Virus record (IMG/VR): IMGVR_UViG_3300016471_001132
Span: 1-64,000 of that record
From: a virus
Direction: 5' to 3' (one strand)
DNA: 64,000 nucleotides
Within the stretch, counting starts at the first letter, position 1; every line of letters begins with the position of its first letter. The notes beneath the pieces were generated by a model. It worked only from the letters and a program-made list of their open reading frames with translations. It made no database searches and had not been told where the DNA came from. Positions 31,098 through 55,984 of the stretch are shown here, in pieces. Both the position numbers and the translations under genes were made by a program.

Positions 31098-33744
31098 ACA
31101 ATGATTGGAATGTGTTATCGGTATTGGTAGATGATTCGAGATCCCACTCTAGCACTCCCAATAGGTTTTCAATCTTGCTGTCGATCACAGTGGCTTCCAT
31201 CTCGCTGTCATCAAAAGGCAACTCACGGAACCATTGCGGCAGATGCAACTCATCAGTAGGATACCCGATGCTGGTCCAGTCTAGCACGTTGGGTTTGAGT
31301 TTGCACACGATGGTCTTCATACCGTCTACTATCTGCATGCTGTAGTTGTCCCCGTTCATCTTGCGTAGACTGTTCCAATTCAAAGCTGCCCGCACATGTC
31401 CGGGCATGTTGGCACGCCCCAGTCGCTCTTCTTCTTTCTGGAATTTGGTGAGATTGTTCACACGCTTGGGTGTGCCTTTTTCCCAGCCTGGTCTTTCTTT
31501 AAACGCGAATTTAAATTGTTTGATTTTTTCTACCACTGTGTCTCTGTCACTGCCGGTCAAGACATCATTGAGCACATCGCTGAGAAAGTCTTGGATGATC
31601 TTGGGAGTATCGCTGCGTTTGAGATCCAGTCCCATGGCCTTGACCTTGCCAGGCTTGCCGTTGACATCTATGCGCTTGCCTTCTTTGTCTATGATCATCA
31701 CCGCATAGCGTTTCTTTGTGATGAACAGTCCACGGCTGGCTACCACTTCACGGCCACCTCGGATGACCGAACCCATTTCTCTGGGCACATGGAAAGCTCG
31801 TTCCATGAATGCTGGAAAACTCTGATTGACTTGATCAGCGATGCCATCGTATAAGGCGATGCAGGTTTCTTTGGACCATTCCATGCGGCCTTCTTCTACT
31901 TCCTTTTTCAGCACTGGCCATGCAGAAAAGTAACAAGAATCTGTGTCTCCATAGATGATGCATTCGCCCACATGGTCATATTTGCCCGTGATGCATTCGT
32001 TGACATAGGCATCCATGTGGTGTGCGATAGCCCGACCCGTCAGTGTGGTGCTCTGTCCGATGCGTTTGTCAAAAAATCTACAGCCAGGATTCAAGATCGC
32101 CCCATACAGACTGTTCAAGTTGATCTTCTTTACCAACTGCCGTTTGTCCCAGTACTCCTCATCTTCTTTGGTGGTACACTCTTTCAACTCGGCCTGCATC
32201 TCTTTCCGTTCTGCGTACCACCGTTTGAGCAGTCCCGGAATCACAGCCTCTGTTTCATATGTGAATATGGTACCGTTGGCACTGAGCATCCAAGGTTGGT
32301 TTGAGTCAAAGATCATCTTCCATATTTCAGCGGCACTATGCACACTCTCATCACCGTCCTTCCAGTCGACGGTGATCTCTGTGCCACGCTGTTGTTCCAT
32401 CACAGCAGTGTACTCTAAGGTACCAAACAGGCCTTCCCAGGCCGCAGCGAAACTGGACCCATTGCGCTGCTTGTCCTGGATATAATGATCGGTCATTACC
32501 GGGCGGAGTTGCCCCACGATGGTTTCTGGGCCCATGTTAAGAGCACGGATCGCTGAGGGATACAGACTGTTGATGTCGATGCTACCAACCCAGTCGTGCA
32601 TGCCTTTCTTGGGATAAGCAACATAGGCACCTGCGGCTTGCGTGTCTTCATCTGTGAACCTTTCTTTCCTTACGGGCACTACCATGCCTCGTTCGTGTGC
32701 TTCGTTGATAATGGCCTGCTCTGTCACGGCCACTGCACCCATGGTAGTGGGTAGCAATACTGTGTTTTCGTGTGCAAGAGTGTTGGCGAGATCTAAGAAC
32801 TTGAGTTTTTTATCTATGTTGGCCAGCAATTTAACGTCCTGCCGGTTGTATTCGATAAATGTCTTCCAGTTCTGATTGTAAAGCTGGTCCAAGGTACCTT
32901 CGAACGCTGTCTTGGAGCCCAGCTCTTCGTATTCACCTATGGCATCCAAACTGTAACTATGCCGCTCTTCATAGGTGTATTTGCGATACAGTTGCATGTA
33001 GTCTAGATGCACACGACCTATGAGATCGAATGTGAGATTCTCAGCACCAAAGCGTTCAAAGGTCCGTTGCTTGGGCATTTGATCCCACAGGCAAAATCTG
33101 CGTGTGTCATCTTTACTGAGCACCCGCGTGGTACGCATCACGGTGTAAGGAATATCATAACCCTCGGAGTTCCAACCGCTCAACACATCAGCATCTTGTA
33201 TGAGATTGAGGAAGGTGTCCAGCAAGTCTCGCTCTTCCCAGAACACAAAGGTGTTGGGGAATTCGGCAGCGATCTCATCGGCTGTTTCTTTGCTCATGTG
33301 GCGCGGCGGCATGACCAAGGACACCAGTTGATCCAGCCAATCGAGATACACAGAAATAGCAGTGATGGCATTGAATGGATCGTCTGGGCGGCTGAAGCCT
33401 CGCACAGGATCAAAATCTACTTCGATGTCAAAAAACGCTGTGTGGAGACGCGGTGCATCTTGTCCTTTGTAGTTTTCTTCCAAACATCGGAATATGGGAT
33501 TGATATCGCCCTCGTAGAGATTCTTGCCTTTCTGTATGGCCATTTCTTTGCGGAACTCTTTTGAGTTACGGGTGGAAAAACGGGCCACAGGTGTGCCGTA
33601 GATCGATCGGAACTTGCCCCGAGGATCGTCATAATAAAAGATGTAGTTGGCAGGAAATTCTTCGTAGTACCGTTCGCCGTCTCGGCGACCTACGATATGG
33701 ATGCGATCGTGATCACGATCAAATAATGCGTCGATGTAACTCAT
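31087..33744 (-). CDS. polB: family B DNA polymerase (T4 gp43-like) with 3'-5' exonuclease
   Basis: FDIE, GWNSEGYD, YNRQD exonuclease motifs; DINSLYPS, K...NSLYG, YGDTDS, KKRY polymerase motifs; 885 aa, uninterrupted. Confidence 0.97.
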   Translation of the reverse strand: MSYIDALFDRDHDRIHIVGRRDGERYYEEFPANYIFYYDDPRGKFRSIYGTPVARFSTRNSKEFRKEMAIQKGKNLYEGDINPIFRCLEENYKGQDAPRLHTAFFDIEVDFDPVRGFSRPDDPFNAITAISVYLDWLDQLVSLVMPPRHMSKETADEIAAEFPNTFVFWEERDLLDTFLNLIQDADVLSGWNSEGYDIPYTVMRTTRVLSKDDTRRFCLWDQMPKQRTFERFGAENLTFDLIGRVHLDYMQLYRKYTYEERHSYSLDAIGEYEELGSKTAFEGTLDQLYNQNWKTFIEYNRQDVKLLANIDKKLKFLDLANTLAHENTVLLPTTMGAVAVTEQAIINEAHERGMVVPVRKERFTDEDTQAAGAYVAYPKKGMHDWVGSIDINSLYPSAIRALNMGPETIVGQLRPVMTDHYIQDKQRNGSSFAAAWEGLFGTLEYTAVMEQQRGTEITVDWKDGDESVHSAAEIWKMIFDSNQPWMLSANGTIFTYETEAVIPGLLKRWYAERKEMQAELKECTTKEDEEYWDKRQLVKKINLNSLYGAILNPGCRFFDKRIGQSTTLTGRAIAHHMDAYVNECITGKYDHVGECIIYGDTDSCYFSAWPVLKKEVEEGRMEWSKETCIALYDGIADQVNQSFPAFMERAFHVPREMGSVIRGGREVVASRGLFITKKRYAVMIIDKEGKRIDVNGKPGKVKAMGLDLKRSDTPKIIQDFLSDVLNDVLTGSDRDTVVEKIKQFKFAFKERPGWEKGTPKRVNNLTKFQKEEERLGRANMPGHVRAALNWNSLRKMNGDNYSMQIVDGMKTIVCKLKPNVLDWTSIGYPTDELHLPQWFRELPFDDSEMEATVIDSKIENLLGVLEWDLESSTNTDNTFQSLFEY

Positions 33745-35030: not shown

Positions 35031-35098
35031 ACCGGGCTGAAGGGGTACCGGGCGCTGTCTGTGCCGTCATCCTCGGGCCATACAGGATATTCGTTCAT
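35027..35098 (-). CDS. 23-aa micropeptide (MNEYPVWPEDDGTDSARYPFSPV)
   Basis: ATGA overlaps at both ends. Confidence 0.45.
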   Translation of the reverse strand: MNEYPVWPEDDGTDSARYPFSPV

Positions 35099-35379
35099 AC
35101 ACCCGACGCGGCTATGGCCGCTCCATTGTTGAAACTTTGGCTCCAAGAGTTGGGATTCTTTCTTTTGCGTTTGTACCAGGCATAGCCAGCTCGATGTCCT
35201 GAACAATCCTTGGTGCAAGGGCTGCCGTGGAAAGATAATTCGTCTAGTTGCTCATCTTCGTTGTGTTTCTTCCTGCCTTGGCAATGAGCACGCTGGCTAA
35301 AGCCACGAGGCCGGGCACAGTTGATCGACCGTTTGTATTTTTCGGACCACTTTTCTGATACAAACTCTTTGGCTCTCAT
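35095..35379 (-). CDS. CTS-tagged small basic two-module protein (MRAKEFVSE)
   Basis: Two Cys-containing basic modules separated by EQLDE. Confidence 0.75.
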   Translation of the reverse strand: MRAKEFVSEKWSEKYKRSINCARPRGFSQRAHCQGRKKHNEDEQLDELSFHGSPCTKDCSGHRAGYAWYKRKRKNPNSWSQSFNNGAAIAASGV

Positions 35380-35480
35380 GCCAATGCCAATCTCTTTTTC
35401 AGTTCATTGAGAGCTGCAGTCAATGATTCTGCCATGATCTGATACACAGTTTCTCCAACAGTGAAGGTATAGTTTTTCAT
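35376..35480 (-). CDS. 34-aa microprotein, not in the ORF track
   Basis: MKNYTFTVGETVYQIMAESLTAALNELKKRLALA; ATGA overlaps at both ends. Confidence 0.5.
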   Translation of the reverse strand: MKNYTFTVGETVYQIMAESLTAALNELKKRLALA

Positions 35481-35737
35481 TTTTTCTTCGTCGCCACGTT
35501 GATGGCTGCTCCTTTTCTTTCTGGATTGGGATCTTGTCTACGCTTCCTTGCTGCTGCGGATGCTCGGCCTTTTTTGCCCAAGGCATGCGCTTTGCTTTGC
35601 GGCAGACACTTGGGTTTACCTTCCTTGCTGCTGCCACGGGCGCAAGGACCCATGATCTTGCCTTGGGGATTGAATCGTACCCATTTTTCACGGAACCATT
35701 TTTTTAGGTCTTCGGTGATGAATTCCTCAGCTCTCAT
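35477..35737 (-). CDS. CTS-tagged small basic protein (MRAEEFITE)
   Basis: DLKKWFREKWV...PC...KPKCLP; highly basic. Confidence 0.75.
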   Translation of the reverse strand: MRAEEFITEDLKKWFREKWVRFNPQGKIMGPCARGSSKEGKPKCLPQSKAHALGKKGRASAAARKRRQDPNPERKGAAINVATKKK

Positions 35738-40986: not shown

Positions 40987-43386
40987 TTATCTCCTCAACT
41001 GATACTGTTGATCTATCATGTCTTGGTGCATCCTATCGCTGGCTCCGTTGAGTTGACGTAGCAGGCTGCGATTGTCCACATTGTCTTTGTTGTATTGCCG
41101 TGCCATGGCTCTGGCGTTGATGTCGGGCACTATGGCATTGTTGTAGCTGTCAAATCCCGGAGTATAGTTCATGAGTCCCAGGACCACTGCTTGGCTGGCA
41201 GTCTGGGCTTCGATGGTGGCGGCCCGTGATATGTCATTGGCCAGCTCTCGGGCTTTTTCTGTGGCAGCCTTCTTTACTGCTTCTCGTCGTTGGGCCTGTG
41301 AGTTGGTGTCGGACTTTTTGTCTGATTTGGCATCGGATGACGAGGTTTTCTCTTTTGAGTCTCCGGATGTTTCCTTGGTGTCCTTTTTAGTATCAGCACT
41401 GGCTGTCTCCCGTTTCTCCACTGTATTTACTACGGCCTCTACAGCGGCAGCCGTCTGCTTTTGTTCGGCCTGTGCTGCCTGTGTTTGTTGCTGTGTGGGC
41501 GCTGCCGCAGGTGTGGGCTGCTGGGGTTGAATGTCTCGGTTGTCGGAACCACCAGTGGTCTTGACCACAGCAGTGGGATCAGCGGCATCGCTTTTGGTAG
41601 TCAGTACCGAGTTCACTGTGCTGTCTGACACCAAGGCCACTGTAGTGTTTATAGTGCCGTTGGATTTGATGTCTATGGCGGGTTCAGAAGTAGATGCTGT
41701 GGCAGTAGATGATGTAGAGGTCGTGGAATAGTTGGGACACAATGTATTGCTCTGGCTGTTGGTGCTGCAGGCCGCCAGCGTGGTCTGATAACTAGGGCAA
41801 TAGGTGTACAACAGTTGATTCACTGAGCATTCTGCTGATGCTGTCTGATAGGCAGGACAATAGGTATGGCTCAAGGGATTGGCTGAACATTGTTCCACTG
41901 CTGCAGTATATCCAGTACAACCTGAATCATAGAAAGGGTTGAGGCTGCACTGCTGGCTGTAGTAGGCCTGGGCGTAACCGGGACAGGTCACAGCATACAA
42001 GGAATTGATGCTGCACTGCTGGGCATGATAGGCAACAGCATAGCCAGGACAGGTGCTGTCATAGAGAGCATTGATCGAGCACTGCTGATTGAAATAGGCT
42101 TGAGCATAACCAGGACAATTGGGAGAAAACAAAGGATTCTGGGCACACACATCCGTGGTCTCTGTGCCTGAGAATGTGTAGGCAGTACCGGCAGTGGCAG
42201 TCATAGTAGCGGCTGGTCCAAAATGTTTCTGATAGTATTGACCCTGGCTGATGTCACCGGCGATACCGATCAAAGGTGTTGCGTTGGCCGACAGATTGAT
42301 TTGGCTGTAGTTGATGCCGATGTAGCCGGAATCTTTGATGTTGACGCTGAAGGTGTTTTCGTTGTTGGTGCCGATCTCATTCACACGATTCCAAGTGTAT
42401 TTGATGCCAGTGCCAGCATCAGTCTGCTCTGTGTAGAAAGTGCTGTTGGCACCGGGGATGAGATCTGTGTTGAGTGCATAGATGGCATAACGCCAGGGAG
42501 AGTTAGGCGATAATACTTGACCGTTGAGATCAGTTCCTGAACAACAGAAACCACCAGGGTTGGGATCCAAGAAGCCCACTACACCGTTGGTGTACATCAC
42601 CGATGTGGTGAACAGTTGACCGTAGAAGGGAAATATAAACGGCAAGTTCACTATGGCATAGCCATCGTCGCTCATGTTGTAGTAGGTCTTGTAACCTGGA
42701 CAGGAGGGATTGCTCTGTGGATTGGCCACGCAAGGATCCACTGGTGCTGCTGTATAGTTGAGCTGCAGACTGACATTACGCACCTGCGGGCCATAATAAC
42801 CGTTCCAAGAGCCAGCGTCACTGCCGGTGAATTCTACACCAAGCGTGCCAGCGTTGGCGATTTCCAAAGGTGTGGCCAAAGACTTGGTGCCACCATACCA
42901 GTTCCATTCGCTGGGCCCAGTGTAGGTGCGAGTGTCAGACAGTATCCTGGTACCTCCGGAGTTGGTCATGAATGTGGTGGCTGTGAGCACATCATTGTAG
43001 GCGGGTTGACCACCCAGACCGCCGTTCATGTTACGGACTTCATAACCCCAGTTGTAACCGTTGATTTGTACACCAGCATTTACTCCGGCCAAGGCTTGAT
43101 TGATGGCTATGACTTGTGCCACAGTGGTCTGGCCATAACTCCAGTGTATCTTGCCTGATTGACCATTGCTGCTACCCGATGTGTCCAAGAAGGGTGCCGA
43201 CCCTGAATAGGAAGTACAACATCCCCATAATTGCCCAGGCGGGGTACCATTGAGTTGGCTGTAACCCCCGATCCCAGTCCACACGCCCGTACCGGCGATG
43301 CCGGGCTGATTGGTGATCAGATTGGCAGTGGTGTCAGCCCAGGCTATGGAACTAACGAGTAGGAGCAGCGACAGCAGGCGACGCAC
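40987..43386 (-). CDS. secreted 799-aa protein: beta-sandwich, NIDO-like domain, Cys-rich tandem repeats, coiled-coil tail
   Basis: Signal peptide; LPFIFPFYG...YTNGVVGF; about 7 C-x9-C-P-G/A/S-Y repeats. Confidence 0.7.
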   Translation of the reverse strand: MRRLLSLLLLVSSIAWADTTANLITNQPGIAGTGVWTGIGGYSQLNGTPPGQLWGCCTSYSGSAPFLDTSGSSNGQSGKIHWSYGQTTVAQVIAINQALAGVNAGVQINGYNWGYEVRNMNGGLGGQPAYNDVLTATTFMTNSGGTRILSDTRTYTGPSEWNWYGGTKSLATPLEIANAGTLGVEFTGSDAGSWNGYYGPQVRNVSLQLNYTAAPVDPCVANPQSNPSCPGYKTYYNMSDDGYAIVNLPFIFPFYGQLFTTSVMYTNGVVGFLDPNPGGFCCSGTDLNGQVLSPNSPWRYAIYALNTDLIPGANSTFYTEQTDAGTGIKYTWNRVNEIGTNNENTFSVNIKDSGYIGINYSQINLSANATPLIGIAGDISQGQYYQKHFGPAATMTATAGTAYTFSGTETTDVCAQNPLFSPNCPGYAQAYFNQQCSINALYDSTCPGYAVAYHAQQCSINSLYAVTCPGYAQAYYSQQCSLNPFYDSGCTGYTAAVEQCSANPLSHTYCPAYQTASAECSVNQLLYTYCPSYQTTLAACSTNSQSNTLCPNYSTTSTSSTATASTSEPAIDIKSNGTINTTVALVSDSTVNSVLTTKSDAADPTAVVKTTGGSDNRDIQPQQPTPAAAPTQQQTQAAQAEQKQTAAAVEAVVNTVEKRETASADTKKDTKETSGDSKEKTSSSDAKSDKKSDTNSQAQRREAVKKAATEKARELANDISRAATIEAQTASQAVVLGLMNYTPGFDSYNNAIVPDINARAMARQYNKDNVDNRSLLRQLNGASDRMHQDMIDQQYQLRR
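41730..42155 (-). repeat. intragenic Cys-rich tandem repeat, about 7 units of 20-22 aa
   Basis: QQCSINxLYxxTCPGYAxAY-like units in the 799-aa protein. Confidence 0.8.
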
Positions 43387-44713: not shown

Positions 44714-45373
44714 CTACTTATCATACGGAAGGAATCTAAATCCCATCTCAAATGGTGTTTTTCCAATGTGTTTCTCTTCGAGATACGCTTTGCTTCTACA
44801 TACGCTCAAAAGATTTATTGGAACATGATTGTTAGTAGTACAGAGTTTTATGATATAGTTGCCAGTGATCGATACTGGACAATGCTTGGCCGCTAATCTC
44901 GATGATTCATATTGTCCCCACGGCGTGAGAAAGTATCCACGAGCATTGGGATTATTTCTCCCCGTCTTTGATTGAGAATATCTCTGTTTGGCCAGTTCGC
45001 TGCGAGGAGGTTGTTGGCAACCTTTTTTCTTCTGGCTCACTATCTGTGCTAACTCTTGCCGTAGTTTTTCATAAAAACGAGATTGTTTGATGACATTGTG
45101 TCTATCTGCTTTGCCTCGACCTGTAAGATAGAACACAGACATCACCATCTTTTTACGGGCTTCATTTGTGGTCATACGGGTAAGCAAGAGATGGCAAACA
45201 AAGTGTTCTCTGGCTGTGAGATCTACAAGATTGGATGGACTATTATCGCCGCCTAAACTGCGAGGGATGATGTGATGTCGTTCAGTATAGCCTGCGATGG
45301 TTCTTGATCTTGCTCGATCAACGATGTTATTATACCAACGGCTGTATTTGTTTTGTAAATACACGGCTGACAT
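44714..45373 (-). mobile_element. free-standing HNH (homing) endonuclease gene, low GC
   Basis: ERHHIIPRSLGG.N...NLV.LTAREHFVCHLLL motif; basic C-terminal DNA-binding-like region. Confidence 0.8.
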
Positions 45374-45385
45374 GGTCCTTTCATG

Positions 45386-45431
45386 TTAGAGTGGGTGGAG
45401 GTTGCCGCCTCGCGACCCGCACTATTACTTA
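45386..45431 (-). promoter_or_regulatory. structured leader hairpin of the HNH gene with a TAAGTA motif
   Basis: GGGU-CGC-GAGG-CGGCAA-CCUC-C-ACCC then ACUCUAAC; TAAGTA at 45426-45431. Confidence 0.4.
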
Positions 45432-45802
45432 TCGCGGAACAAGCGATTTATCCGAGCGATAGGATCTTCTTCCGCAGTTTCTTCCAAGGCGGCTTCCGAC
45501 TTGAAATATTTTTTGCCGAGAGATACCACATGGTCATCGTTGGCTCTTCGGATGGCTTCCATGCTGTTTTCAGCCGAAGCAATATAGTCATAAACTTCTT
45601 GTTTGAATTTGGGGAAGTTGGGATGCCCTTCCATCTTTGTACCTGGTGATTTTTGATTCAACTGCCTGATGGTGGAAGCAGCGACCTCTTTTGGAGTAGT
45701 GCCTGCGTTGACACGATTTTTCAAGAATGAACCGATGATACCTTCCGCCACACCTTGCTCGGCGGATTCGATAAGATTGATGTATTCGCGAAGTGTTTTC
45801 AT
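45425..45802 (-). CDS. CTS-tagged modular protein (125 aa, MKTLREYINLIE)
   Basis: QGVAEG and ALEE linkers bracket an insert module. Confidence 0.75.
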   Translation of the reverse strand: MKTLREYINLIESAEQGVAEGIIGSFLKNRVNAGTTPKEVAASTIRQLNQKSPGTKMEGHPNFPKFKQEVYDYIASAENSMEAIRRANDDHVVSLGKKYFKSEAALEETAEEDPIARINRLFRDK

Positions 45803-45808
45803 AGTCTA

Positions 45809-47596
45809 TTATTTATCCTTCCTTGCTTTGCCACGCCGCATGTTGAGTTGCCATTGTGCCATCCTGCGACGCTCGCCTGTGCTGCTCTTGGCTATCTTTT
45901 CCAGTTGGCCCAGCGTGGCTTTCTTGGGTATGCCCACTCTGCGACTCAGACCCTTGCGGCCAGGTTTCTTGCCATCTGCGAAATTTTCATCCAATGATTG
46001 TTTTTTAGCATAACGATTGGCCCAATTTGTATAACCATTGAAAGTATCAAAGGTTCCTTGACGATCTCGTAAGAATCGTTGTTCGGGCTTGGGTATTTTC
46101 CACACAGCAATGGGTTTCATCACGCCATAGTTAACAACATTCATATATCTTTGCATGAGATATTGTAGTGTCTGTGGTTTAAGTTTACTGATCAACCATT
46201 TGCCAGCCATGGCTATGGTTTCAAAACTTACATTGGGTTTAGATAACTCTGCTTTAAGATCCTCGGGTATGCCTTGAATCAATGCCGACAAGTTAAGCGG
46301 AAGATTTTTTGCCTTAACAAATTTTTCTAGCAGTCTTCCTAATTCATCCTCATCTGGCGATGTTTGTGAAAGACTCTTACCTGAAAATTCAAACACATAA
46401 CCATAGGGTTCTTGTTTGATATAATCAGCATATTGTTCATCTGGAACATCGCTCATAAAACTATATCTCACAGCGTTGCCAAACTCTTTTGACAGATACA
46501 CTCCTGGCAACGGAGAAAAGTTTTTACTTCCTTTGTATTTTTGTGCAATTAGTTCGGGATCAAACTTCAACCCATTTCTCATGATTCCTTGAGCATTGCT
46601 CAAACTAGGAGTTCCGTGATAAAGTGTAGAGGATTGGACCGAAATTGGTGGGGGTGCCATTTCTTTGACCCGACCATCGGCGAAGTTTTCGCCCATTTCT
46701 GCCTCCCAGACCTCCTTGCCTTTCCAGTGCCGGCGGCCCGCATCAGTCTGATTAGCGTTGGGCACGATCCGGCCCAGTTGAGACTTGGCGAAATCATACA
46801 TCACACGGGCGATGCCTTGGCCACGATAGCGTTCATCCACCTGGAGTTCTTCGCCTTCCCAACCATGACCAGTGTCAGTGAAGTAACCGCTGCCTAACTC
46901 GCGTTCGCCCGTGCCATCCATGGCAGTGACATACAGGGTTTTACCATCATCAGAATATTCGTACTGGATGTTGAGACCATCTTGGCTGGCTCGGGCTTCC
47001 GCAACCACAGGCTCGTCCATGAAATCGCTCAAGGGATCCACTATCACGAGTTGTCCGTTGGCACGCTGCATGATGTTGGCCACATTGCCGAGATCGTACT
47101 CATATTTGTCTGCTCGGCCACTGCCATACAGTTGATCCACGGCCTGGACCAAGCCATCCACTTGTTGTGCTGTCAGTCCTGCGGGCACCTGATCCAAGTC
47201 GGGATATTCACCGCGACCCATCTTGGCCATGGCCTGTTCCAGATAGTCTAGTACTGCTTGGTCACCGGGCAAGGAATACAGTCGTTCTTGTGTGTACATA
47301 TAGTAGGTTTTGCCGTTCCAACGCAGGGTCTTGTCTACACCCACTCGGGGAAAGTGTGGATTGCGTTGATGCTCACGGAAGAAGTTGACATATCTACGCA
47401 CCACATCTTGTCTCACATCGCTGCCCTGTCCCACTATCTTCAACACGGTGCGGCTGCCGGGCTTGGACATCACGATCTGATCGCGACCTTCGCCGTCGAT
47501 CTCCCAGCCCCGATCGGTGAATCTTTCGATGAGATCAGGATCCACCGTGAGTTCACCGGCGGCATTGACTTCGGAGATGAAATCTCGGGCTCTCAT
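45809..47596 (-). CDS. CTS-tagged polyvalent protein: kinase-like + GNAT + ADP-ribosyltransferase-like + basic tail (595 aa); start revised to MRARDFISE at 47596
   Basis: VLKIV...DLGNVANIM...LVIVDP; VDERYRGQGIA...QT..G; LYHGT...GVYLS...RY; ENFADG twice. Confidence 0.75.
   Translation of the reverse strand: MRARDFISEVNAAGELTVDPDLIERFTDRGWEIDGEGRDQIVMSKPGSRTVLKIVGQGSDVRQDVVRRYVNFFREHQRNPHFPRVGVDKTLRWNGKTYYMYTQERLYSLPGDQAVLDYLEQAMAKMGRGEYPDLDQVPAGLTAQQVDGLVQAVDQLYGSGRADKYEYDLGNVANIMQRANGQLVIVDPLSDFMDEPVVAEARASQDGLNIQYEYSDDGKTLYVTAMDGTGERELGSGYFTDTGHGWEGEELQVDERYRGQGIARVMYDFAKSQLGRIVPNANQTDAGRRHWKGKEVWEAEMGENFADGRVKEMAPPPISVQSSTLYHGTPSLSNAQGIMRNGLKFDPELIAQKYKGSKNFSPLPGVYLSKEFGNAVRYSFMSDVPDEQYADYIKQEPYGYVFEFSGKSLSQTSPDEDELGRLLEKFVKAKNLPLNLSALIQGIPEDLKAELSKPNVSFETIAMAGKWLISKLKPQTLQYLMQRYMNVVNYGVMKPIAVWKIPKPEQRFLRDRQGTFDTFNGYTNWANRYAKKQSLDENFADGKKPGRKGLSRRVGIPKKATLGQLEKIAKSSTGERRRMAQWQLNMRRGKARKDK
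45810..45815 (-). promoter_or_regulatory. TAAATA late-promoter-like motif
   Basis: 7 nt before the ATG; overlaps the upstream stop. Confidence 0.5.
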
Positions 47597-49047
47597 GCGG
47601 CCGCTCCGATCCAGGCGTTGATCTTGAATCCTTCGGGATTCAGCCGGAAAGCAGCCATAGTCCTGTGCCAACCTTCCACCAGTTCTAATCCGTTGGGGTG
47701 TTGCAACATGATCACTGGGGGGAGATTCTCCATGCCCTTGGCCTTGACTAATTCTATGGCCTGCTCCAAGCGTTCACGATCTCTGGGTATCATGAAGGGA
47801 TTTTTATTGCCAAAGTCTCGTTTGATCTTCATGCGATATCTAGTAGTAGGATCCAGCATATCGAAAGTCAAAGGCATCCGCTGCACCAACCGCCATTGAT
47901 CCGCCATGGTAGCCAACTCACGCACATGATCCAGTTTCAGTTCGAGATCCTGTGGTGACTTGATCTTGGATATCACCATATCTTTTAGCACATAGTCGGG
48001 CCAACCTGGTAATTCATCTCGCAGGATGTCCATGACACCACGCTGCACTTCTGTGATACCTGATCGCTTGCGTTCCCAAACAAATACGGTCATGTCTCCG
48101 GGCACGATCGTCAACTGCCACTGATCGCCCAGGATGTCTTGGATCACTGGCACGAAATATCGCTTGTACAGCTCGATGCGGCTGGCACCTTTGGCTGTAA
48201 ATGTGACCCGGGGTGGGCGTGCTGACTTCATGTACTGGGGTAACTGTTCGCGGACGATGTTCAGCACAGTGCTGAGGATGCGTATCACCGATCCACTGGC
48301 CTTTGTGGGCCGGGGTGGTGCTTCGTAGTTTTGATTCACTGTGAATGTGATCTGTAGGCTGTCATTGATAGGGCTGCGGTCAAAGAACACATCCACCCAT
48401 TGGCTGTCTACTGTGGCATGAAACAGGCTACGCCGCCTGCGACGATTGGGCTCATACTCGCTGGGTGAGTCACCTATCTCGTTCAGCGTACCCCTCACAC
48501 GATCAAAGAATGTGGGGTTGGGTGCACCCTTGACCTCGCCATGTCGTTTATGTTGTCCAGCATAGTCATAATAGCGACCCACCACATCAAACGCAGGCTC
48601 AAAGAACACTGCTTGTGGTGTGAGCCCACCTTTGAGTATGCCCACACGACGCTTGCCTGGGGGTGCGTCTCGGACCTCTCGAGGATCTCTATGCCCGATG
48701 GGCTGTAACCAAGCATCGGGTCGTTTCTTGACCAACCACACATAGGGAAAGTCCATGGCATATTCGCCCTGTGACATCATGCTGAGATAGGTTCGCAAGG
48801 GATAGAACCACAAAGCCCTGCGGCCACCTCCACGACTGCTTGTACCTATGCTCGAGACTGAGAAACTGGGATCATCGATTTCCACATGCCGCTTGAACTT
48901 CTGCCGATCGCTGAAACCTATTTTATCTACTTCGGTGAAACGCACGAAGTAGTCCCGGGGATCACCACCGTGTTGACGCACGGCATCCTGTATCTGTCCA
49001 CGGATGCTGGCCGCCTTACGCTCGGTGATGAATTCCTGTGCTCGCAT
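47593..49047 (-). CDS. CTS-tagged three-module protein (484 aa) with a C-terminal ParB/Srx-like module
   Basis: MRAQEFITE; LNE and ITE junctions; PPVI...LVEGWHR motif. Confidence 0.7.
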   Translation of the reverse strand: MRAQEFITERKAASIRGQIQDAVRQHGGDPRDYFVRFTEVDKIGFSDRQKFKRHVEIDDPSFSVSSIGTSSRGGGRRALWFYPLRTYLSMMSQGEYAMDFPYVWLVKKRPDAWLQPIGHRDPREVRDAPPGKRRVGILKGGLTPQAVFFEPAFDVVGRYYDYAGQHKRHGEVKGAPNPTFFDRVRGTLNEIGDSPSEYEPNRRRRRSLFHATVDSQWVDVFFDRSPINDSLQITFTVNQNYEAPPRPTKASGSVIRILSTVLNIVREQLPQYMKSARPPRVTFTAKGASRIELYKRYFVPVIQDILGDQWQLTIVPGDMTVFVWERKRSGITEVQRGVMDILRDELPGWPDYVLKDMVISKIKSPQDLELKLDHVRELATMADQWRLVQRMPLTFDMLDPTTRYRMKIKRDFGNKNPFMIPRDRERLEQAIELVKAKGMENLPPVIMLQHPNGLELVEGWHRTMAAFRLNPEGFKINAWIGAAA

Positions 49048-49101: not shown

Positions 49102-49785
49102 TCACGAGTTAATCTGGTTCTGTACAATAAGGTCATGTGTTCTTTGGTTTAATTTAACTGTAAGAATCATAGAATAAACATGATTAGTAAAACTAAAAAC
49201 AGAATGTTCTCTTTGAAAGTTAACAAAATAAAAATATCCCGGATCAAAGTATGTAGGAACTCCCCCTAACATTTGAACAAAGTTTTCAGGTTTGCATTTT
49301 CCAAATACTGTAATTAATCTAATATATTCCGGACAAGCACCTACAAAGTCAACGTGTGGCGGAAAGTATCCGCCAGCGTCTAATTTTAGAAAATGTACTC
49401 TACCTATGTCAGGCTGAAACATATCAACTACGGGTTGTATCTGCGGCAATGCGTGATATACCTGCGTAGGTGTTGCAAAGTTCTCTTCCTTCATCTCAAT
49501 GTTGTGGTATTGTTGCATACCCCCAAAACTCTTAAGATGATAGTTATCCATTACATCTCCTGTATGACTAGTTATTGGGAGTCCCCATCTGGTACTATGT
49601 GTGTCTTCATTTTGACCTGGGGGCCGCTGTCCCCAGGACGGACTGTAAGGGCACCAGTTATTTTCAAATTGTGCAAGATCCTTTTCTAACTTAATGGGAT
49701 TAACAAACATTTTTAATTTAAAATATTCTCCCATATTAGCAAGGCTGTTGAACAACATGCCTCTTTCAAGCTCTTCGTATGTCAT
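49102..49785 (-). CDS. 2OG-Fe(II) oxygenase (aspartyl/asparaginyl beta-hydroxylase-like), low GC
   Basis: RVHFLKL..GG..PPHVD, RL, ..N...EHSV (HxD...H) motifs. Confidence 0.7.
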   Translation of the reverse strand: MTYEELERGMLFNSLANMGEYFKLKMFVNPIKLEKDLAQFENNWCPYSPSWGQRPPGQNEDTHSTRWGLPITSHTGDVMDNYHLKSFGGMQQYHNIEMKEENFATPTQVYHALPQIQPVVDMFQPDIGRVHFLKLDAGGYFPPHVDFVGACPEYIRLITVFGKCKPENFVQMLGGVPTYFDPGYFYFVNFQREHSVFSFTNHVYSMILTVKLNQRTHDLIVQNQINS

Positions 49786-50286: not shown

Positions 50287-50757
50287 TTATCCACCATGCA
50301 TGCCTTGCTTGATGATGTGTCGGAGATCGCCCAAGGCCTCTTCTTCAGTGTCATAGCCACTGTTGTCCTTGCCCGAAGCATAGTGCCGCATGTAGTATTG
50401 ACCAACACCGGCACTGGATTCTCTGTCGATACCGACTTCGCCCACGGGCTGGCCTTTGTGTTTGACGATCTTGCGTTGTTGATCGGCATGACCTTCCTGC
50501 ACAGGTTTGATTGGTCCACGCAAGGTATCTATGAGTTCACCCCCAAAATCGGGGTCTCTCATGATGGCACGCACCCGGATGTCGCTCATGCCCATGCGTA
50601 GGAGTTCACGAGCAGCATCACTGAGTATGTCATCTTCCGAGGCCTTCAGATAACTTTTACCAGGATTGTTGTCCAGCATGGCTCTGCTGACCTGATATAT
50701 GGTGTTGTCTTGGCCTTCCGCCACACCTTGTTCTACTAATATCTCGTTGATTCTCAT
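50287..50757 (-). CDS. CTS-tagged two-module protein; start revised to MRINEILVE at 50757
   Basis: QGVAEG and VQEG linkers; ATGA overlap. Confidence 0.75.
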   Translation of the reverse strand: MRINEILVEQGVAEGQDNTIYQVSRAMLDNNPGKSYLKASEDDILSDAARELLRMGMSDIRVRAIMRDPDFGGELIDTLRGPIKPVQEGHADQQRKIVKHKGQPVGEVGIDRESSAGVGQYYMRHYASGKDNSGYDTEEEALGDLRHIIKQGMHGG

Positions 50758-50804: not shown

Positions 50805-51158
50805 CAGGGTTGATTCATACTTGGCCAGCATCTCGGCCATCTCACTATCGGTCCGGGGCACGGGCCAAGCACGGATCACATCCAAGTCTGCTTCGATGCC
50901 GGGATCCATGCCCAGTCTTGTGCGGCCGATGCGTTCGGCCGTTTTCTCTATCATGTTGGCCACTGCCAGGATTTTTTCCAGCCTGCGGATCTCTGCTTGT
51001 AATGTGGCCAAGTCCTTGCCAGGGGCAGCAGGCACAGGAGCCACTGATATCTGTGCCACTTGTTCGCCGGGCTGATTCATGGCCTGTTTGATCTGCGTGA
51101 GAGCAGCCATGGCTCGATCTGTCAGTGGTGCTTCTGTAAGTATTTCTTGTACTCTCAT
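50754..51158 (-). CDS. CTS-tagged helical protein (134 aa, MRVQEILTE)
   Basis: Coupled to the 1608-aa gene (TAATG). Confidence 0.75.
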   Translation of the reverse strand: MRVQEILTEAPLTDRAMAALTQIKQAMNQPGEQVAQISVAPVPAAPGKDLATLQAEIRRLEKILAVANMIEKTAERIGRTRLGMDPGIEADLDVIRAWPVPRTDSEMAEMLAKYESTLEQFKQFLAYKKKVWKR

Positions 51159-54100
51159 TATCTCATCTCCGGCACTACTTCTGCTTCGTTGCCCAGCGTG
51201 CCTTGTCTATAACCTTGTTGTGCCAACCAGCGAGCAGCATATCTGTTGGCATCACTTTGCGAATTGCCTATGCCGTGGAATCTGGTAAGTTCACGCCCTT
51301 CAGCATCTCGCACGATCCAGTGGCCGGTCCACTCGCCCGGTGGCACATCAAGCCTGGCACGCACATCGTCAGCGTCTTGATTGTCATCTCTCTGCTGTTG
51401 GTTCTGTTGGCGTATGCGTTCCTGATCCATGCGATAGGTCTCGATCTCTTGTTGATCGGCCAGCCTGGCTCTGGCATCCTCATGACCAAAGTCGCTGTCT
51501 ATCATGGCGGCTTTTTGGATGGCTTCGGCTTGACTACGGGCCACGATGTTCTTTATCTTGCTGTGAAAGTTCACACGCCACAGTTGCTCGCCCACATCCC
51601 GGGTGCTGCGAGTCACACGCTTGGCCAACTCGGCTCTACGGCTGGGGGGTGCTTTGGGTTTTTTTGGTTCTTGGTGCACACGCACTTTCCACGTTGGATT
51701 CTGTGGTCTGAAGTTCGAATTGAAATATTTGATCGCTGCTTCGTCATCTTCGGCGTGGAATACACTGATCACGTTGCCAGATTCTGGGTCGTAGACATCA
51801 TAGTCTTTGTCGATGAAGGGAGGAATATCCTCTTCTTGCTCTGCATCCTGTTCGGCTCGCAGCACAGTTTCAGCCCACTGGCGCTTGAGTTCATCACCCG
51901 AGATGTAACCGGTGGAGTAGTCAGCGAACAATCGCATGAAAGGATCCTCGTCTTCGGTCTCGATACGGGTCTGGAATCTGGTATCCTTGGCACCTTTGGC
52001 TATCTCGGCACCTTTGTAGCCCGACAGCATTTTGTAGAGTTTCTTGGCATATTCTTTACGGTGCAGTTCGGGACTGCCGGCTATGCTCATGGCATAGGCC
52101 AAGCGTAACATGGTGTTTTCCAAGGTGCCTTCGATCTCGCTTTCTTTAGAGAGATAGTCTCCGCCAGGACCGCGGAACTCGATGTAGCCATCGTGTGGAT
52201 TCACGCTCACATACTTTTCGCCCAGCACACCACGCTGGAGTTCACGGTCGGCCAACTCGATGAGATTTTTCTTCATCAGTTCCATAACACCCGCGATCTG
52301 CTTGGGACCGGCTCTTTTCATGCTGGAGATCTTGTTTTGCAGTCGTTCGTAGGCGGACCGGGTGTAGTAGTTGCTGGCCCGGTCGAACTTGTCCAGCAGG
52401 TCCCGGTCGCCCATGAACAGGATCAGTTTGATGGGATCCACATCTCCGCCCTTGAACGGCAGACTCACGCCCATGTGCAGGCCGGTACTGCTGTTGGTAT
52501 AAGCATCACCGGAGCCATTGGCCCAGTCTATGACCTTGTTCAGTTGCTCGATGGCTTCAGGCAAGGGCATGGGAGGTGATACGATCTCCAAGCCGTAGTC
52601 TTCCGAGTCATCGGCATCCAGGCTGCCATCGGGTTCGATCACATAATAATCGCCACGACGGGTGCCGTGATAGCCCGAGCTCACACGCACATCCAGGCCA
52701 GTGGCACGCTCCAGGCTGTTGGCGATGTCCCGCCATTCACGCTCGCCACCATTGCCACCGCCTTCGGTCCAGTAGGGCCATTCCAGGCTCCACTCGTTGC
52801 TGACATCACTCATGTAGCGCATGCCCGAACTATCTAGCCAATCGGCTTGGTCGGCTTCGGCAGCATATTCGTCATAGAGTTCTTCCCTAGCACGGTCATA
52901 CCAGTCGCCACTGCGATCCCAATCACGCTCGGCATCGTCACGGAACAGTTGAACGGCCTGCTTTTCCAGTTCTTCATCTGAGATTTCTTCGTCGCCCAGG
53001 GCATCACGGGCCTGCTCTCGATATTCGTCGTCGACTTCGGGCCAGATGTTGTCATCGACCCAACTCATGTATCGATCCATGTCAAAGTAGTTTTCGATGA
53101 AACTGTCGTTGACCCAGTCATAGAACTGTTCAGTCAAATCTTGCGACAAGCGATCGGCCGCTCGGGCCGAAATACCATTGTCGCCGCCACGGAAGAAGTC
53201 GATGATTTCTTGGATGCTGGATGCACGCTCGTCCATGTCCCAGTCGGGCTCGCTCTCGCCACCGTCGCCGTCGTGCTGGGTGTCGCGGAATATGAGTTCG
53301 GCCTCGAAGCCAGCACGGATACCCTTGGCAGCATCACTGTTGAGGAATTTTTTGAACGCCGATGGACTCATCTCTACTTCCATGAGATCTTCATCTTCAG
53401 CAAGGCTTTCTACACTGAATGGACTCATATCTTCTACTGGAATAATTTTGGCTGTGATGGCAGGTTGTTTGGTCAGGATGGCTTTATGTGCCCTATGCGT
53501 TCCGTCAGCGATCCATAAACTACCATTCTTCCGTCGAACCACGATAATGGGATACTTGAGATCGGCTTTTGCCACTCGAGATTGCGATTGTGCAGGGTCT
53601 TCTTCGCGACCAACAATTTGGTCGTGGAACTGCGTAGGATCGACTTTTTCAGTTGGATATTTTGCAGCAAAATCTACTAAATCTTTTATGTTGAAACGGA
53701 ATGATTCGCCATCAATACCAATACCTGCAGTTTGATCCAGGCCAGATCCTTCCGACACTTTCACACAGTTGGGAACCTGGCGGTCGCCCTTCCGTTTCAT
53801 ACCTTGTTGTTTGTATCCTGACCAGCAATCTTCGTCGGTCTTGACGCTCTCTAATAGATTGTTCAACTTCTTCATCAGCAGCGGAGGAACACCAGCGGCG
53901 TCGGTCTTGAATCCCATCTTCCGAGCCTGGCGTTGGATCTCACCTGGTTTTATATCCTGCGTGATGGCCATGCTATATCTTGGATCTCGCGCTTCTCGGT
54001 CGTCGATGGGAATGTAGCCGGTGGCTTCGTTCACAGGCTGTTCACCAGCAGCACGGATGTCGGGTATGGGCAAGCGTGTGGGTTGATCAGTGTGACCACC

Positions 54101-55984
54101 TTGACGACGCAGCCAGTTATGGAACTCTTGCGCAAATTCAGCCTTGACATCAGGAGAACGAAGTTGACTGGCACCATAGATCCAGCGAGCGGCATTCAAG
54201 ATCTTGGCAGCAGTCACAGGCTCTTGTGGTTGTGCTGTAGGCTCTTGTGCCTGTACGAAACTGGCAGCAGCAGCGAACACAGCGGTCAACAAGGCTTTGG
54301 ACACTGCACCTTCGGCCACTTGGCCCTTCATCTTCATCACTGCCGCAAAGCTAGTCAGGAACTGCTGTTCGGCTTTGGAGAGAGGACGACCCATGCGGGC
54401 TTTGCCCTGTAAGAAGTCATAGTACTGTTTGATGTGCCGGGGATCTTGGCTTACAGGAGTCTGGATGGCTTCGTCTAGTTCACCGGCAAATATCTCAGGA
54501 TGATGCTCGCGGAAGTCACGCATGATGCGACCGGCTAGAGCGTTGGCCTCGTCTTCGAATCTGCTGCCAGTCTCACCACCATCGGCTGGAATACCTTCGC
54601 GCTCTTCTTGGTGATGATGCACCAGTTCGTGTGCTAATGTACGCATGACATCGGCCATGTGTCGTCCAGCCACACTGACTTCTAATGTATTATTGTCAGG
54701 ATCATAATGACCGAATGTGCCATTGACTTGGCTCCATTGTGGATCTCGGCGTATTTTGATTTTGGGACACGATTCGATTCCTAGTTTATCACAAACATAT
54801 TCTGTGAATTTTTGCAAGATAGACGCCGAGCTCTGCTGCTCGTCCATCCGGTATTCCGCTTCAGGATCTTTGTTCTTGGCTCGGCGATCTATATCCAGGG
54901 TCTTCATGCCCAAGCGGTCTAGATCCTTCTTGTACATGTGTTCGATAGGCTCGCTACCAAAACTCAGCACAGTTTGCGGAGCACCTTTGCCATAGGCCTT
55001 GGGGTCAGCATGTTTGAGATCGCTGATATCCTGTCCCAGTTTGTACCAATCATAAACATCACTTACATTGACCAATATTGTACCTGCTGGCATCTCGGGT
55101 TTGAACTCAGGTCCAGGTGGTTCAGCATTGGGATCATAATCTTCTTTCGTGCTTTCGCCACCACCATCACCACCGCCATCTGTGGCAGCATCACTACCAC
55201 CATAATAATGATAGCCTGGGAACCAGTAAGCACCATAGCCGTAACGGGTTTTCTTCTTTTTGGTTTTGCGCTCGTCAAGGCTCATCATCGAGTCTTTGGC
55301 TTCTTTTCTGGCATCACGTAGTTTTTCTAGTGTACCGTTGCCACGAAGTATTTTGAATGCTAGATTCTCCGGGCCAAACTCGCCAGTGGTCTCCAATCCA
55401 GCCTGCCGCATCTCTCGGATCTTGGCAGCCATTGCGTCCATCCGGCCAAGATCACCACTCTTGATGGCTTGTTCTATGCGTTGCCCTATGTCTTCGTATT
55501 TGCTCCGGACAGAGATATCATCCACTGTGGGCCGGCGGCGTGCAGGGACCTTGATCCAGTCATTGTTGAGGACCGAGTAGATGCCTTGGCTCACATGCGG
55601 CTGGTTGGCGTTTTGCACATACAGCTCTACATCGTAGCCGCCGATCTTGTAGTCGTGCTGATCGTTATATTGGTACTTTTTGGCATCAAAAAGCTCGCGG
55701 TAGACATCGCTGGCATCAGCTCGAGGTAGGTCTACCACCAGATGCAAATCGATGTCCGAATGTGGTGTATATGTGTAAGCAGCGTTTGATCCAGAGATCG
55801 TTATATCTTTGATCTCGAGATCGGTGATGCCCAGGCTTTCGCGGAAATCATCTGCTATCTGTAGAAGCTTTTGCCGCACTTCGGGCAAGAGATGTTCATC
55901 TGAACCCCACAGTCGGGGGTTCAGATTATCATTGAATTTTACAGCGTCGGAAAGACGATAGGTTTCTAACTCACGGAGGTCCAT
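51158..55984 (-). CDS. 1608-aa polyvalent protein: Pol-beta nucleotidyltransferase, HExxH peptidase, basic micro-modules, ParB-like module, putative amidoligase
   Basis: ISGSN...SDIDLH; HELVH; CWSGY...VPNC; YPIIV...IADGTHR; GFEAE...EPDGSL...LEIVSP...TGLHM...IEFRGPGG. Confidence 0.8.
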   Translation of the reverse strand: MDLRELETYRLSDAVKFNDNLNPRLWGSDEHLLPEVRQKLLQIADDFRESLGITDLEIKDITISGSNAAYTYTPHSDIDLHLVVDLPRADASDVYRELFDAKKYQYNDQHDYKIGGYDVELYVQNANQPHVSQGIYSVLNNDWIKVPARRRPTVDDISVRSKYEDIGQRIEQAIKSGDLGRMDAMAAKIREMRQAGLETTGEFGPENLAFKILRGNGTLEKLRDARKEAKDSMMSLDERKTKKKKTRYGYGAYWFPGYHYYGGSDAATDGGGDGGGESTKEDYDPNAEPPGPEFKPEMPAGTILVNVSDVYDWYKLGQDISDLKHADPKAYGKGAPQTVLSFGSEPIEHMYKKDLDRLGMKTLDIDRRAKNKDPEAEYRMDEQQSSASILQKFTEYVCDKLGIESCPKIKIRRDPQWSQVNGTFGHYDPDNNTLEVSVAGRHMADVMRTLAHELVHHHQEEREGIPADGGETGSRFEDEANALAGRIMRDFREHHPEIFAGELDEAIQTPVSQDPRHIKQYYDFLQGKARMGRPLSKAEQQFLTSFAAVMKMKGQVAEGAVSKALLTAVFAAAASFVQAQEPTAQPQEPVTAAKILNAARWIYGASQLRSPDVKAEFAQEFHNWLRRQGGHTDQPTRLPIPDIRAAGEQPVNEATGYIPIDDREARDPRYSMAITQDIKPGEIQRQARKMGFKTDAAGVPPLLMKKLNNLLESVKTDEDCWSGYKQQGMKRKGDRQVPNCVKVSEGSGLDQTAGIGIDGESFRFNIKDLVDFAAKYPTEKVDPTQFHDQIVGREEDPAQSQSRVAKADLKYPIIVVRRKNGSLWIADGTHRAHKAILTKQPAITAKIIPVEDMSPFSVESLAEDEDLMEVEMSPSAFKKFLNSDAAKGIRAGFEAELIFRDTQHDGDGGESEPDWDMDERASSIQEIIDFFRGGDNGISARAADRLSQDLTEQFYDWVNDSFIENYFDMDRYMSWVDDNIWPEVDDEYREQARDALGDEEISDEELEKQAVQLFRDDAERDWDRSGDWYDRAREELYDEYAAEADQADWLDSSGMRYMSDVSNEWSLEWPYWTEGGGNGGEREWRDIANSLERATGLDVRVSSGYHGTRRGDYYVIEPDGSLDADDSEDYGLEIVSPPMPLPEAIEQLNKVIDWANGSGDAYTNSSTGLHMGVSLPFKGGDVDPIKLILFMGDRDLLDKFDRASNYYTRSAYERLQNKISSMKRAGPKQIAGVMELMKKNLIELADRELQRGVLGEKYVSVNPHDGYIEFRGPGGDYLSKESEIEGTLENTMLRLAYAMSIAGSPELHRKEYAKKLYKMLSGYKGAEIAKGAKDTRFQTRIETEDEDPFMRLFADYSTGYISGDELKRQWAETVLRAEQDAEQEEDIPPFIDKDYDVYDPESGNVISVFHAEDDEAAIKYFNSNFRPQNPTWKVRVHQEPKKPKAPPSRRAELAKRVTRSTRDVGEQLWRVNFHSKIKNIVARSQAEAIQKAAMIDSDFGHEDARARLADQQEIETYRMDQERIRQQNQQQRDDNQDADDVRARLDVPPGEWTGHWIVRDAEGRELTRFHGIGNSQSDANRYAARWLAQQGYRQGTLGNEAEVVPEMR

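Follow-up and report, generated by a model that had tools for sequence, protein, structure and literature searches.

P0001 is a multidomain protein encoded in the window analysed here, a 64-kb stretch of DNA that forms part of a 136-kb virus record in IMG/VR (IMGVR_UViG_3300016471_001132; completeness rating 39%). From its N-terminus it consists of a 9-amino-acid (aa) leader, a truncated kinase-like core, a short GNAT module, the word ENFADG, a module with an ADP-ribosyltransferase (ART) fold, a second ENFADG and a 53-aa basic tail. Comparison with relatives revealed that this architecture is modular and that the ART module was inserted as a cassette. We propose, with a probability of about 0.6, that P0001 serves an uncultured jumbo phage with T4-type core genes as a small cargo protein of the polyvalent kind, made up of interchangeable modules whose boundaries carry the motif phi-x-E (a hydrophobic residue, any residue, Glu) and delivered by way of the prohead.

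Translation of the gene bore out the leader MRARDFISE and the Lys/Arg-rich tail described in an initial annotation of this DNA, and the motifs named there were all located: DLGNVANIM at aa 168-176, VVAE at aa 196-199, HGT at aa 327-329 and GVYLS at aa 365-369. BLAST mapping of 77 homologues split the protein into aa 1-195, 198-300, 310-535 and 535-595.

Empty and filled sites of the ART cassette

The initial annotation had proposed that the ART was inserted by recombination at the conserved linker. ART-less relatives with a single ENFADG were looked for and found: P0002 (361 aa) and P0003 (363 aa) shared 89% identity with P0001, over its aa 1-329 and aa 1-316 respectively, and both ran through ENFADG-RVK-GKSRPG directly into a basic tail of the other type (type 1). 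The empty-site DNA was compared in one contig (L055, which encodes P0003), found by a degenerate DNA pattern. This DNA was 87.6% identical to the window over 934 nt, from 47596 to 46663, with the match ending one base past the RVK codons. The genes that flank P0003 in L055 were unrelated to those of the window.

The cassette, ENFADG(K/R)VKE-MAPPP...ART...ENFADG, was recovered from four further protein contexts, with 81-91% identity. It stood behind an unrelated 70-aa segment in P0004, behind a SET domain in P0005, behind an unrelated 290-aa segment in P0006 and directly behind the leader in P0079, where it was followed by tail type 1. P0079 looks like a leader-plus-tail mini-protein whose ENFADG has received the cassette. 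The 89% identical empty-site relatives, the breakpoint at ENFADG-RVK and the four additional contexts together supported insertion of the ART at the conserved linker.

Base composition and the two ENFADG words

The low G+C content (GC) initially noted for the ART module was confirmed as real by GC and codon-position counts (Table 1), and it was most pronounced at third codon positions (GC3). The ART tract lay at the 0.7th percentile of same-size windows from the 136-kb record (mean 0.488, sd 0.032). Amino-acid composition was considered as the cause and rejected, since the effect sits in GC3. ART relatives with 64-65% identity were found in phages of 37-39% GC, with GC3 values of 0.18-0.20 that matched their surroundings, which makes an origin of the ART in lower-GC phages plausible. 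Another phage of 49% GC likewise had a low-GC3 ART.

The two ENFADG words were, as first reported, identical at 15 of 18 nt. The three differences were all at synonymous third positions, and therefore the DNA repeat is no more conserved than the peptide demands. In codon style, copy 1 was GC-rich and copy 2 was AT-rich in its 5' half. The earlier description of the ENFADG linkers as duplicated had to be corrected; the two copies were not produced by the insertion and are homologous linkers of two parents. A target-site duplication was also rejected, because the codon styles differ and the word is already present in the empty sites.

The right-hand GC step was located within the second ENFADG and the left-hand step approximately 10-15 codons past the first; the left joint is a 27-nt ENFADG-(K/R)VK word, with which tail type 1 begins. 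Because the right step falls within the second ENFADG, two crossovers, one in each linker word, are the simplest account. An ancestor of kinase-GNAT-ENFADG-tail type gained the low-GC cassette through crossovers in linker-coding words, the left one inside the 27 nt encoding ENFADG-RVK and the right one inside the second ENFADG.

The DNA of these words may not have directed the exchange. The breakpoints could instead reflect selection for in-frame linker joints after random illegitimate recombination (Hendrix-type), a possible explanation, if somewhat less likely than not. The shared word is short, at only 18-27 nt, and the two ENFADG words disagree at each of the three variable third positions; moreover, other relatives attach the same ART via a different word (KQGVAEG) or elsewhere in the tail, and in P0014 there are 17 tail residues before the next module. 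Guidance by the linker is what the identical ENFADG(K/R)VKE-MAPPP joint in five independent contexts and the DNA breakpoint inside the shared word would suggest, but both are also predicted by selection. The placement of the crossovers, whether guided by homology or kept by selection, was therefore not separated by the data.

Table 1. Coordinates and composition of P0001 and its parts in the window.
Feature	Residues (aa)	Position	Strand	GC	GC3	Description
P0001 gene	1-595	45809-47596	(-)			open reading frame, 595 aa, begins MRARDFISE
Leader MRARDFISE	1-9	47570..47596	(-)			T4 capsid-targeting-sequence-like, ends phi-x-E
Kinase-like core (module A)	10-195	47012..47569	(-)	0.540	0.605	N-lobe and C-lobe to DFG-equivalent (VDP)
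Linker MDEPVVAE	193-199	47000..47020	(-)			two phi-x-E motifs at kinase/GNAT junction; BLAST boundaries aa 195/198
Short GNAT-like module (module B)	200-302	46691..46999	(-)	0.564	0.579	motif A RGQGIA, aa 258-263
First linker ENFADG-RVK-E	303-312	46661..46690	(-)			left joint; ENFADG itself 46673-46690 (aa 303-308)
ART-fold module (module C)	313-536	45989..46660	(-)	0.387 (aa 312-536)	0.316 (aa 312-536)	H-Y-E: H327 (HGT), Y367 (GVYLS), E416 (PDED)
Second ENFADG	537-542	45971..45988	(-)			right joint; preceded by L-D (L-D-E = phi-x-E)
ENFADG plus 53-aa basic tail		45812..45988	(-)	0.548 (tail)	0.593 (tail)	conserved C-terminal module, type 2, ends ...MAQWQLNM...

Predicted folds of the three modules

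Three separate catalytic-type modules had been suggested for this protein. They were recovered here, the kinase-like and ART modules by structure prediction and the GNAT module by its motif and weak hidden Markov model (HMM) matches.

The AlphaFold2 model of module A (mean predicted local distance difference test score, pLDDT, 84.2; predicted template modelling score, pTM, 0.80) contained a bilobal kinase fold, with an N-lobe beta-sheet with alphaC, a hinge and a C-lobe catalytic core. In a Foldseek comparison with the PDB all of the approximately 45 listed matches were kinases (protein kinases and amicoumacin kinase; E 9e-5 to 7e-4), and the best 50 rows obtained with VIA-align were all protein kinases or pseudokinases (PknE: Z 9.8, root-mean-square deviation 3.3, 129 residues). 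Among the viral models of BFVD, the nearest named matches were phage "protein kinases" (E 3e-7 to 1e-5, template modelling score 0.55-0.63). K53 (VLKIVG), D168, N174 and D187 (VDP), the roles of which were assigned by motif, were invariant across 24 homologues; the D-to-N spacing in the catalytic loop was one residue above the canonical D-x4-N. The phrog_15752 profile, whose description fits T7 gp0.7, gave a weak match to the catalytic-loop region of P0001 (E 0.0023, 18.2 bits), with no stretch passing alone. The VIA alignments ended near the DFG of the target kinases, and in relatives of 385-444 aa the whole protein terminated just after VDP. As judged from its predicted model, module A is a truncated protein-kinase-like core; the kinase-like fold proposed in the initial annotation was upheld, but the core is not complete, being truncated after the DFG-equivalent.

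Module B was classified as GNAT-like on the basis of sequence matches that were weak but consistent. Its homologues had precomputed matches to PF13508 and PF00583, and several carried the source name "GNAT superfamily". A profile of the module gave weak matches in the PDB, mostly to acyl-CoA N-acyltransferases (E 0.013-0.5). The motif A residues Q, G, A and Y were invariant in 13 module B sequences.

The ART module was likewise modelled with AlphaFold2 (pLDDT 93.1, pTM 0.88). Approximately 45 of the best 50 VIA-align rows were ART-superfamily chains, with Z scores from 6.8 to 3.4, among them Tpt1 (6.8), pertussis toxin S1 (6.3), DarT1 (5.2) and PARP10 (5.0). No ART match at E ≤ 0.001 was obtained with Foldseek against the PDB; the better-scoring rows were almost all ARTs, with E values of 0.02 and above. 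A profile built from 49 diverse sequences of the family matched Tpt1 in the PDB (E 1.4e-4) with the HGT region aligned, the sequence alignment being limited to the N-terminal beta-alpha unit, and five members matched the Pfam family PARP (best E 1.9e-5). H327, Y367, E416 and a D were invariant among the 49 sequences, the H-Y-E assignment being made by motif. A five-helix insert at approximately aa 416-484 was peculiar to this ART family.

The ART module is of the H-Y-E (PARP/Tpt1-like) type and lies outside the R-S-E clade of T4 Alt, ModA and ModB. Its first conserved motif was HGT and not Arg, no invariant STS-like motif was present in the conserved columns of the 49 sequences, and Pfam scans of P0001 and of the ART-module members turned up no R-S-E-type ART family. 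Hence, the ART-like fold named in the initial annotation was supported by structure prediction and fold search, whereas its comparison to the T4 Alt/Mod type was not. An exhaustive search yielded 295 ART cluster representatives; many were stand-alone proteins of 215-250 aa and some were located within proteins of 2464-3974 aa. Among the stand-alone ARTs, 40 of 102 opened with a short leader ending in phi-x-E, followed by M-A-x-P. Since stand-alone ARTs begin in this way, the E-MAPPP of P0001 is best explained as the relic of a leader/mature junction.

Each module also provided a result that weighs against the function proposed for P0001. The activation segment and alphaF-alphaI were absent from module A, which ends approximately 8 residues past VDP and therefore may not be a conventional protein kinase. 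Module B matched Pfam Acetyltransf_7 (E 0.0031) with 18.3 bits, under the gathering cut-off of 27. The fold-search scores of the ART module were middling (Z 5-7; Foldseek E 0.02), so that the fold call depends on the homogeneous VIA list and the profile matches. It could be argued that at least one module is a catalytically dead binding domain, such as a decoy or pseudoenzyme, and that P0001 does not have three activities, given that the kinase core is truncated with a D-to-N spacing one residue long, the GNAT is only about 100 aa and all family HMM scores were under curated cut-offs. This seems somewhat unlikely, since K53, D168, N174, D187, RGQGIA, H327, Y367 and E416 were invariant across divergent homologues and phage "kinases" of 180-260 aa with a similar predicted fold exist.

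The leader and related phages

The family-B DNA polymerase of the record (31087-33744) had 45-50% identity to those of Sinorhizobium phage Phosso (469 kb) and Agrobacterium phage Atu_ph07 (490 kb) and about 42% identity to those of other jumbo phages of 350-380 kb, such as GAP32 and CBB. Phages of this type constitute a jumbo-phage group with T4-type core genes (PMC7824862). Among the metagenomic records that carried P0001 modules were two complete, terminally repeated genomes, 337 and 347 kb in length.

Under the strict pattern, the leader MRAxEFxxE was found at the beginning of at least 6 window genes (starts 35379, 35737, 47596, 49047, 50757 and 51158). Of 74 homologues starting with M, 31 had the strict and 60 the loose form. 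The strict leader DNA pattern occurred six times in G002 and three times in G001, both complete relatives, and the reversed control gave 0. The leader resembles the T4 capsid-targeting sequence (CTS), MKTYQEFIAE (PMC8442874), which is sufficient for a protein to enter the T4 prohead and is cleaved off by gp21 (PMC9026906). The internal proteins of T4 are defence proteins of varied kinds with the CTS as their sole common feature (PMC3012670), and Alt, the packaged ART of T4, has propeptides at both its N- and C-terminus that are removed by gp21 (PMC9026906). Of five related records, four, both complete genomes among them, had a gene that scored above cut-off for Peptidase_S77, the gp21-type family; in G002 this gene is located at 204450-204905.

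Two mini-genes of the window (35095-35379 and 35477-35737, both (-); 94 and 86 aa) consisted of the leader and small basic Trp/Cys-rich modules (KWSEKYK..., KKWFREKWV...). These modules recurred as the final part of large polyvalent proteins in L080 and P0023.

The ENFADG tail and the phi-x-E motif

ENFADG and its tail, together approximately 59 aa, terminated proteins of 65-1851 aa at 53 IMG/VR loci, with 81-96% identity and 33 columns invariant among 34 different proteins. In a Pfam search the only match was to PF21476 (winged-helix-like; E 0.0076), under cut-off. A search of the ESM Atlas with the tail yielded nothing beyond viral clusters without a name and structures that resemble it in short helices, all of them leads at most, and the word ENFADG occurred in none of the papers searched. 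The cargo borne by this tail included NUDIX, NT5C, HD, HAD phosphatase, ParB_N, amidoligase, dCMP deaminase, DUF5661 and DUF6934 domains, as well as nucleotidyltransferases of Pol-beta and poly(A)-polymerase type. The domain repertoire of polyvalent injected proteins (PMC7824862) overlaps with this cargo.

Of 59 distinct contexts, 54 had L, I, V, M or F at P3, two residues before the E of ENFADG (background 0.256, binomial p ~1e-26), and the conserved word is therefore phi-x-E-N-F-A-D-G. The motif phi-x-E is the cleavage specificity of the T4 prohead protease gp21. In P0001 it was present at the joints as I-S-E (leader), M-D-E and V-A-E (kinase/GNAT), M-G-E before the first NFADG, V-K-E before MAPPP and L-D-E before the second NFADG. 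Mini-proteins made up of the leader and ENFADG tail only were also found (L035, 65 aa; L011, 76 aa; L012, 68 aa), and in that of L035 the last E of the leader doubles as the E of ENFADG. By analogy with gp21, there may be an even chance that cleavage occurs at E|NFADG.

A second recurrent linker word, (K/E)QGVAEG, which includes V-A-E, was observed behind leaders in the window (45425-45802 and 50287-50757, both (-)). In the low-GC relatives L080 and L081 it substitutes for ENFADG, joining modules that include the ART.

Proposed packaging and function

The analogy of the leader with the T4 CTS makes packaging of P0001 in the virion slightly the better supposition. The leader would bring the P0001 precursor into the prohead core, where a gp21-type protease would trim the leader and cut the chain at its phi-x-E joints, E|NFADG among them. 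When the DNA is ejected, the released enzymes and basic tail peptide would leave with it, and host proteins or nucleic acids would be modified ahead of phage gene expression.

Several results count against delivery of P0001 in this manner. Searches of the 136-kb record (completeness rating 39%) detected neither Peptidase_S77 (gp21) nor Gp23. The leader DNA pattern occurred 0 times in Atu_ph07 and once, possibly by chance, in Phosso; because the leader is absent from Atu_ph07, the packaging inference is an analogy within an uncultured clade. Among 50,697 GenBank phages the P0001 gene had no blastn match (its relatives are all uncultured) and the ENFADG tail no tblastn match, nor did the tail match any PHROG; the whole of P0001 gave a single distant tblastn match, to an ART of Tunturiibacter phage Tunturi_5. 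There were 13 phi-x-E motifs in P0001, some of them within domains, so the motif alone is not proof of cleavage. Finally, some of the tail-bearing cargo (dCMP deaminase, NT5C) could equally serve intracellular nucleotide metabolism. The T4 late-promoter word TATAAATA occurred 0 times in the window; as only 0.8 occurrences were expected by chance, its absence is uninformative.

T7 gp0.7 and T4 ModA/ModB act after de novo synthesis. It is conceivable that the modular protein and the ART insertion hold as described but that P0001 is unpackaged, its leader and tail serving, for example, translation or expression control, localisation or nucleic-acid binding and its enzymes acting after synthesis. 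The lack of head genes in the 136-kb fragment, the distance of at least 140 kb between the leader genes of G002 and the protease gene, the nucleotide-metabolism enzymes among the tail-bearing proteins and the weak winged-helix-like match of the tail (E 0.0076) are all in keeping with this explanation. We nevertheless judge it improbable, since the leader is close to an experimentally defined T4 CTS and occurs in phages that encode the cognate protease family, the rule of a hydrophobic P3 fits a protease site and would be superfluous for a DNA-binding tail, and the leader-plus-tail mini-proteins make little sense as cytoplasmic enzymes.

The proposal that P0001 is prohead-delivered cargo may be extended, tentatively, to a general cargo-loading system in a clade of uncultured jumbo phages with T4-type core genes. 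In such a system, defined by the leader and ENFADG tail, protease sites would double as in-frame recombination joints at which cassettes of whole enzyme domains are exchanged between genes and phages, and the freed basic tail would be a DNA-associated internal peptide. If this is true, the system would be a protein-domain analogue of the integron.

The locus captures, in a clean natural pair, the states before and after a whole enzyme domain was acquired at a defined short joint; such pairs are seldom caught in phage multidomain effectors. The leader and ENFADG tail are short portable signals that mark, in environmental jumbo phages, a large group of putatively injected proteins, most of them unannotated; if these signals act like the T4 CTS, the cargo set is predictable from sequence. 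The cargo domains (kinase, GNAT, ART, NUDIX, HD, NT5C, ParB) point to early modification of host targets and degradation of signalling nucleotides.

Neighbouring genes

The start of P0001 overlapped by 4 bases with the stop of the upstream gene (47593-49047, (-)), which encodes a 484-aa protein with the leader MRAQEFITE. The C-terminus of this protein (GWHR...AWIG) matched those of P0049 and P0050, where it stands behind a kinase module in one chain; the kinase and GWHR...AWIG modules are thus split between neighbours here and fused elsewhere. Two genes downstream of P0001 was a homing endonuclease gene with an HNH motif (44714-45373, (-); phrog_655, E 2.5e-41), located in a low-GC island of 0.36-0.41. 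A second low-GC island (down to 0.28), inside the block of leader genes, contained a 227-aa open reading frame (49102-49785, (-)) for which there was no significant Pfam match and no PHROG match.

The 1608-aa protein encoded at 51158-55984 (-) matched several PHROG families of unknown function on different stretches. Its N-terminal word, MDLRELETYRL, resembled those of the 1851-aa tail-bearing protein in L003 and of P0041. The 799-aa protein encoded at 40987-43386 (-) had a signal-peptide-like hydrophobic N-terminus, C-P-G-Y...Q-Q-C-S repeats and a Thr/Gln/Lys-rich C-terminal half, and from these sequence features it looks like a secreted or envelope protein.

Comparison with known systems

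P0001 is most readily compared with the polyvalent proteins encoded by phages and by conjugative elements (Iyer et al. 2017, J Bacteriol 199; see also PMC7824862). In its proposed mode of action it would resemble a small member of this kind equipped with T4-style internal-protein signals. As in P0001, several unrelated enzymatic domains, including ART and GNAT, are combined in each chain, and the domain content varies among relatives; by analogy, P0001 would also share with them delivery alongside the DNA for early conflict with the host. The relatives L080 and L081, which have 64-65% ART identity, contained open frames of at least 1178 and at least 1745 aa that are exactly of the polyvalent type. 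P0001 differs in its size of 595 aa, its T4-CTS-like leader, its ENFADG tail and the phi-x-E at each joint. In addition, the pair of empty and filled sites documents the gain of one cassette.

The T4 internal proteins IPI-III and Alt, like P0001, carry a short phi-x-E leader on unrelated proteins that are grouped in variable loci, and the internal-protein family is thought to serve anti-defence (PMC3012670, PMC12373910). In contrast to these proteins, P0001 has several enzymes chained in one precursor, and homology ends at the leader motif. Its ART is of the H-Y-E and not the R-S-E type of Alt, although it may, once packaged, act in the manner of Alt. Packaging and cleavage of P0001 are putative, and the leader is missing in the nearest cultured relatives.

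As regards T7 gp0.7, the predicted fold of module A was nearest, among viral models, to phage "protein kinases". The sequence similarity to gp0.7 was marginal, however; gp0.7 is an early-expressed, non-virion protein, and module A ends at the DFG-equivalent. The kinship of P0001 to gp0.7 is doubtful. The catalytic domains of Tpt1/KptA and PARP share with the P0001 ART both the fold and the HGT...Y...E pattern; the P0001 module differs from them in its extra five-helix insert, and sequence alignment was obtained only at the N-terminal beta-alpha unit.

No convincing Pfam family, PHROG family or description in the papers searched was found for the leader and ENFADG tail of P0001. New in comparison with the systems discussed above are the tail module that begins with ENFADG, an in-frame domain cassette documented by both empty and filled sites, and a leader-marked cargo set in uncultured jumbo phages.

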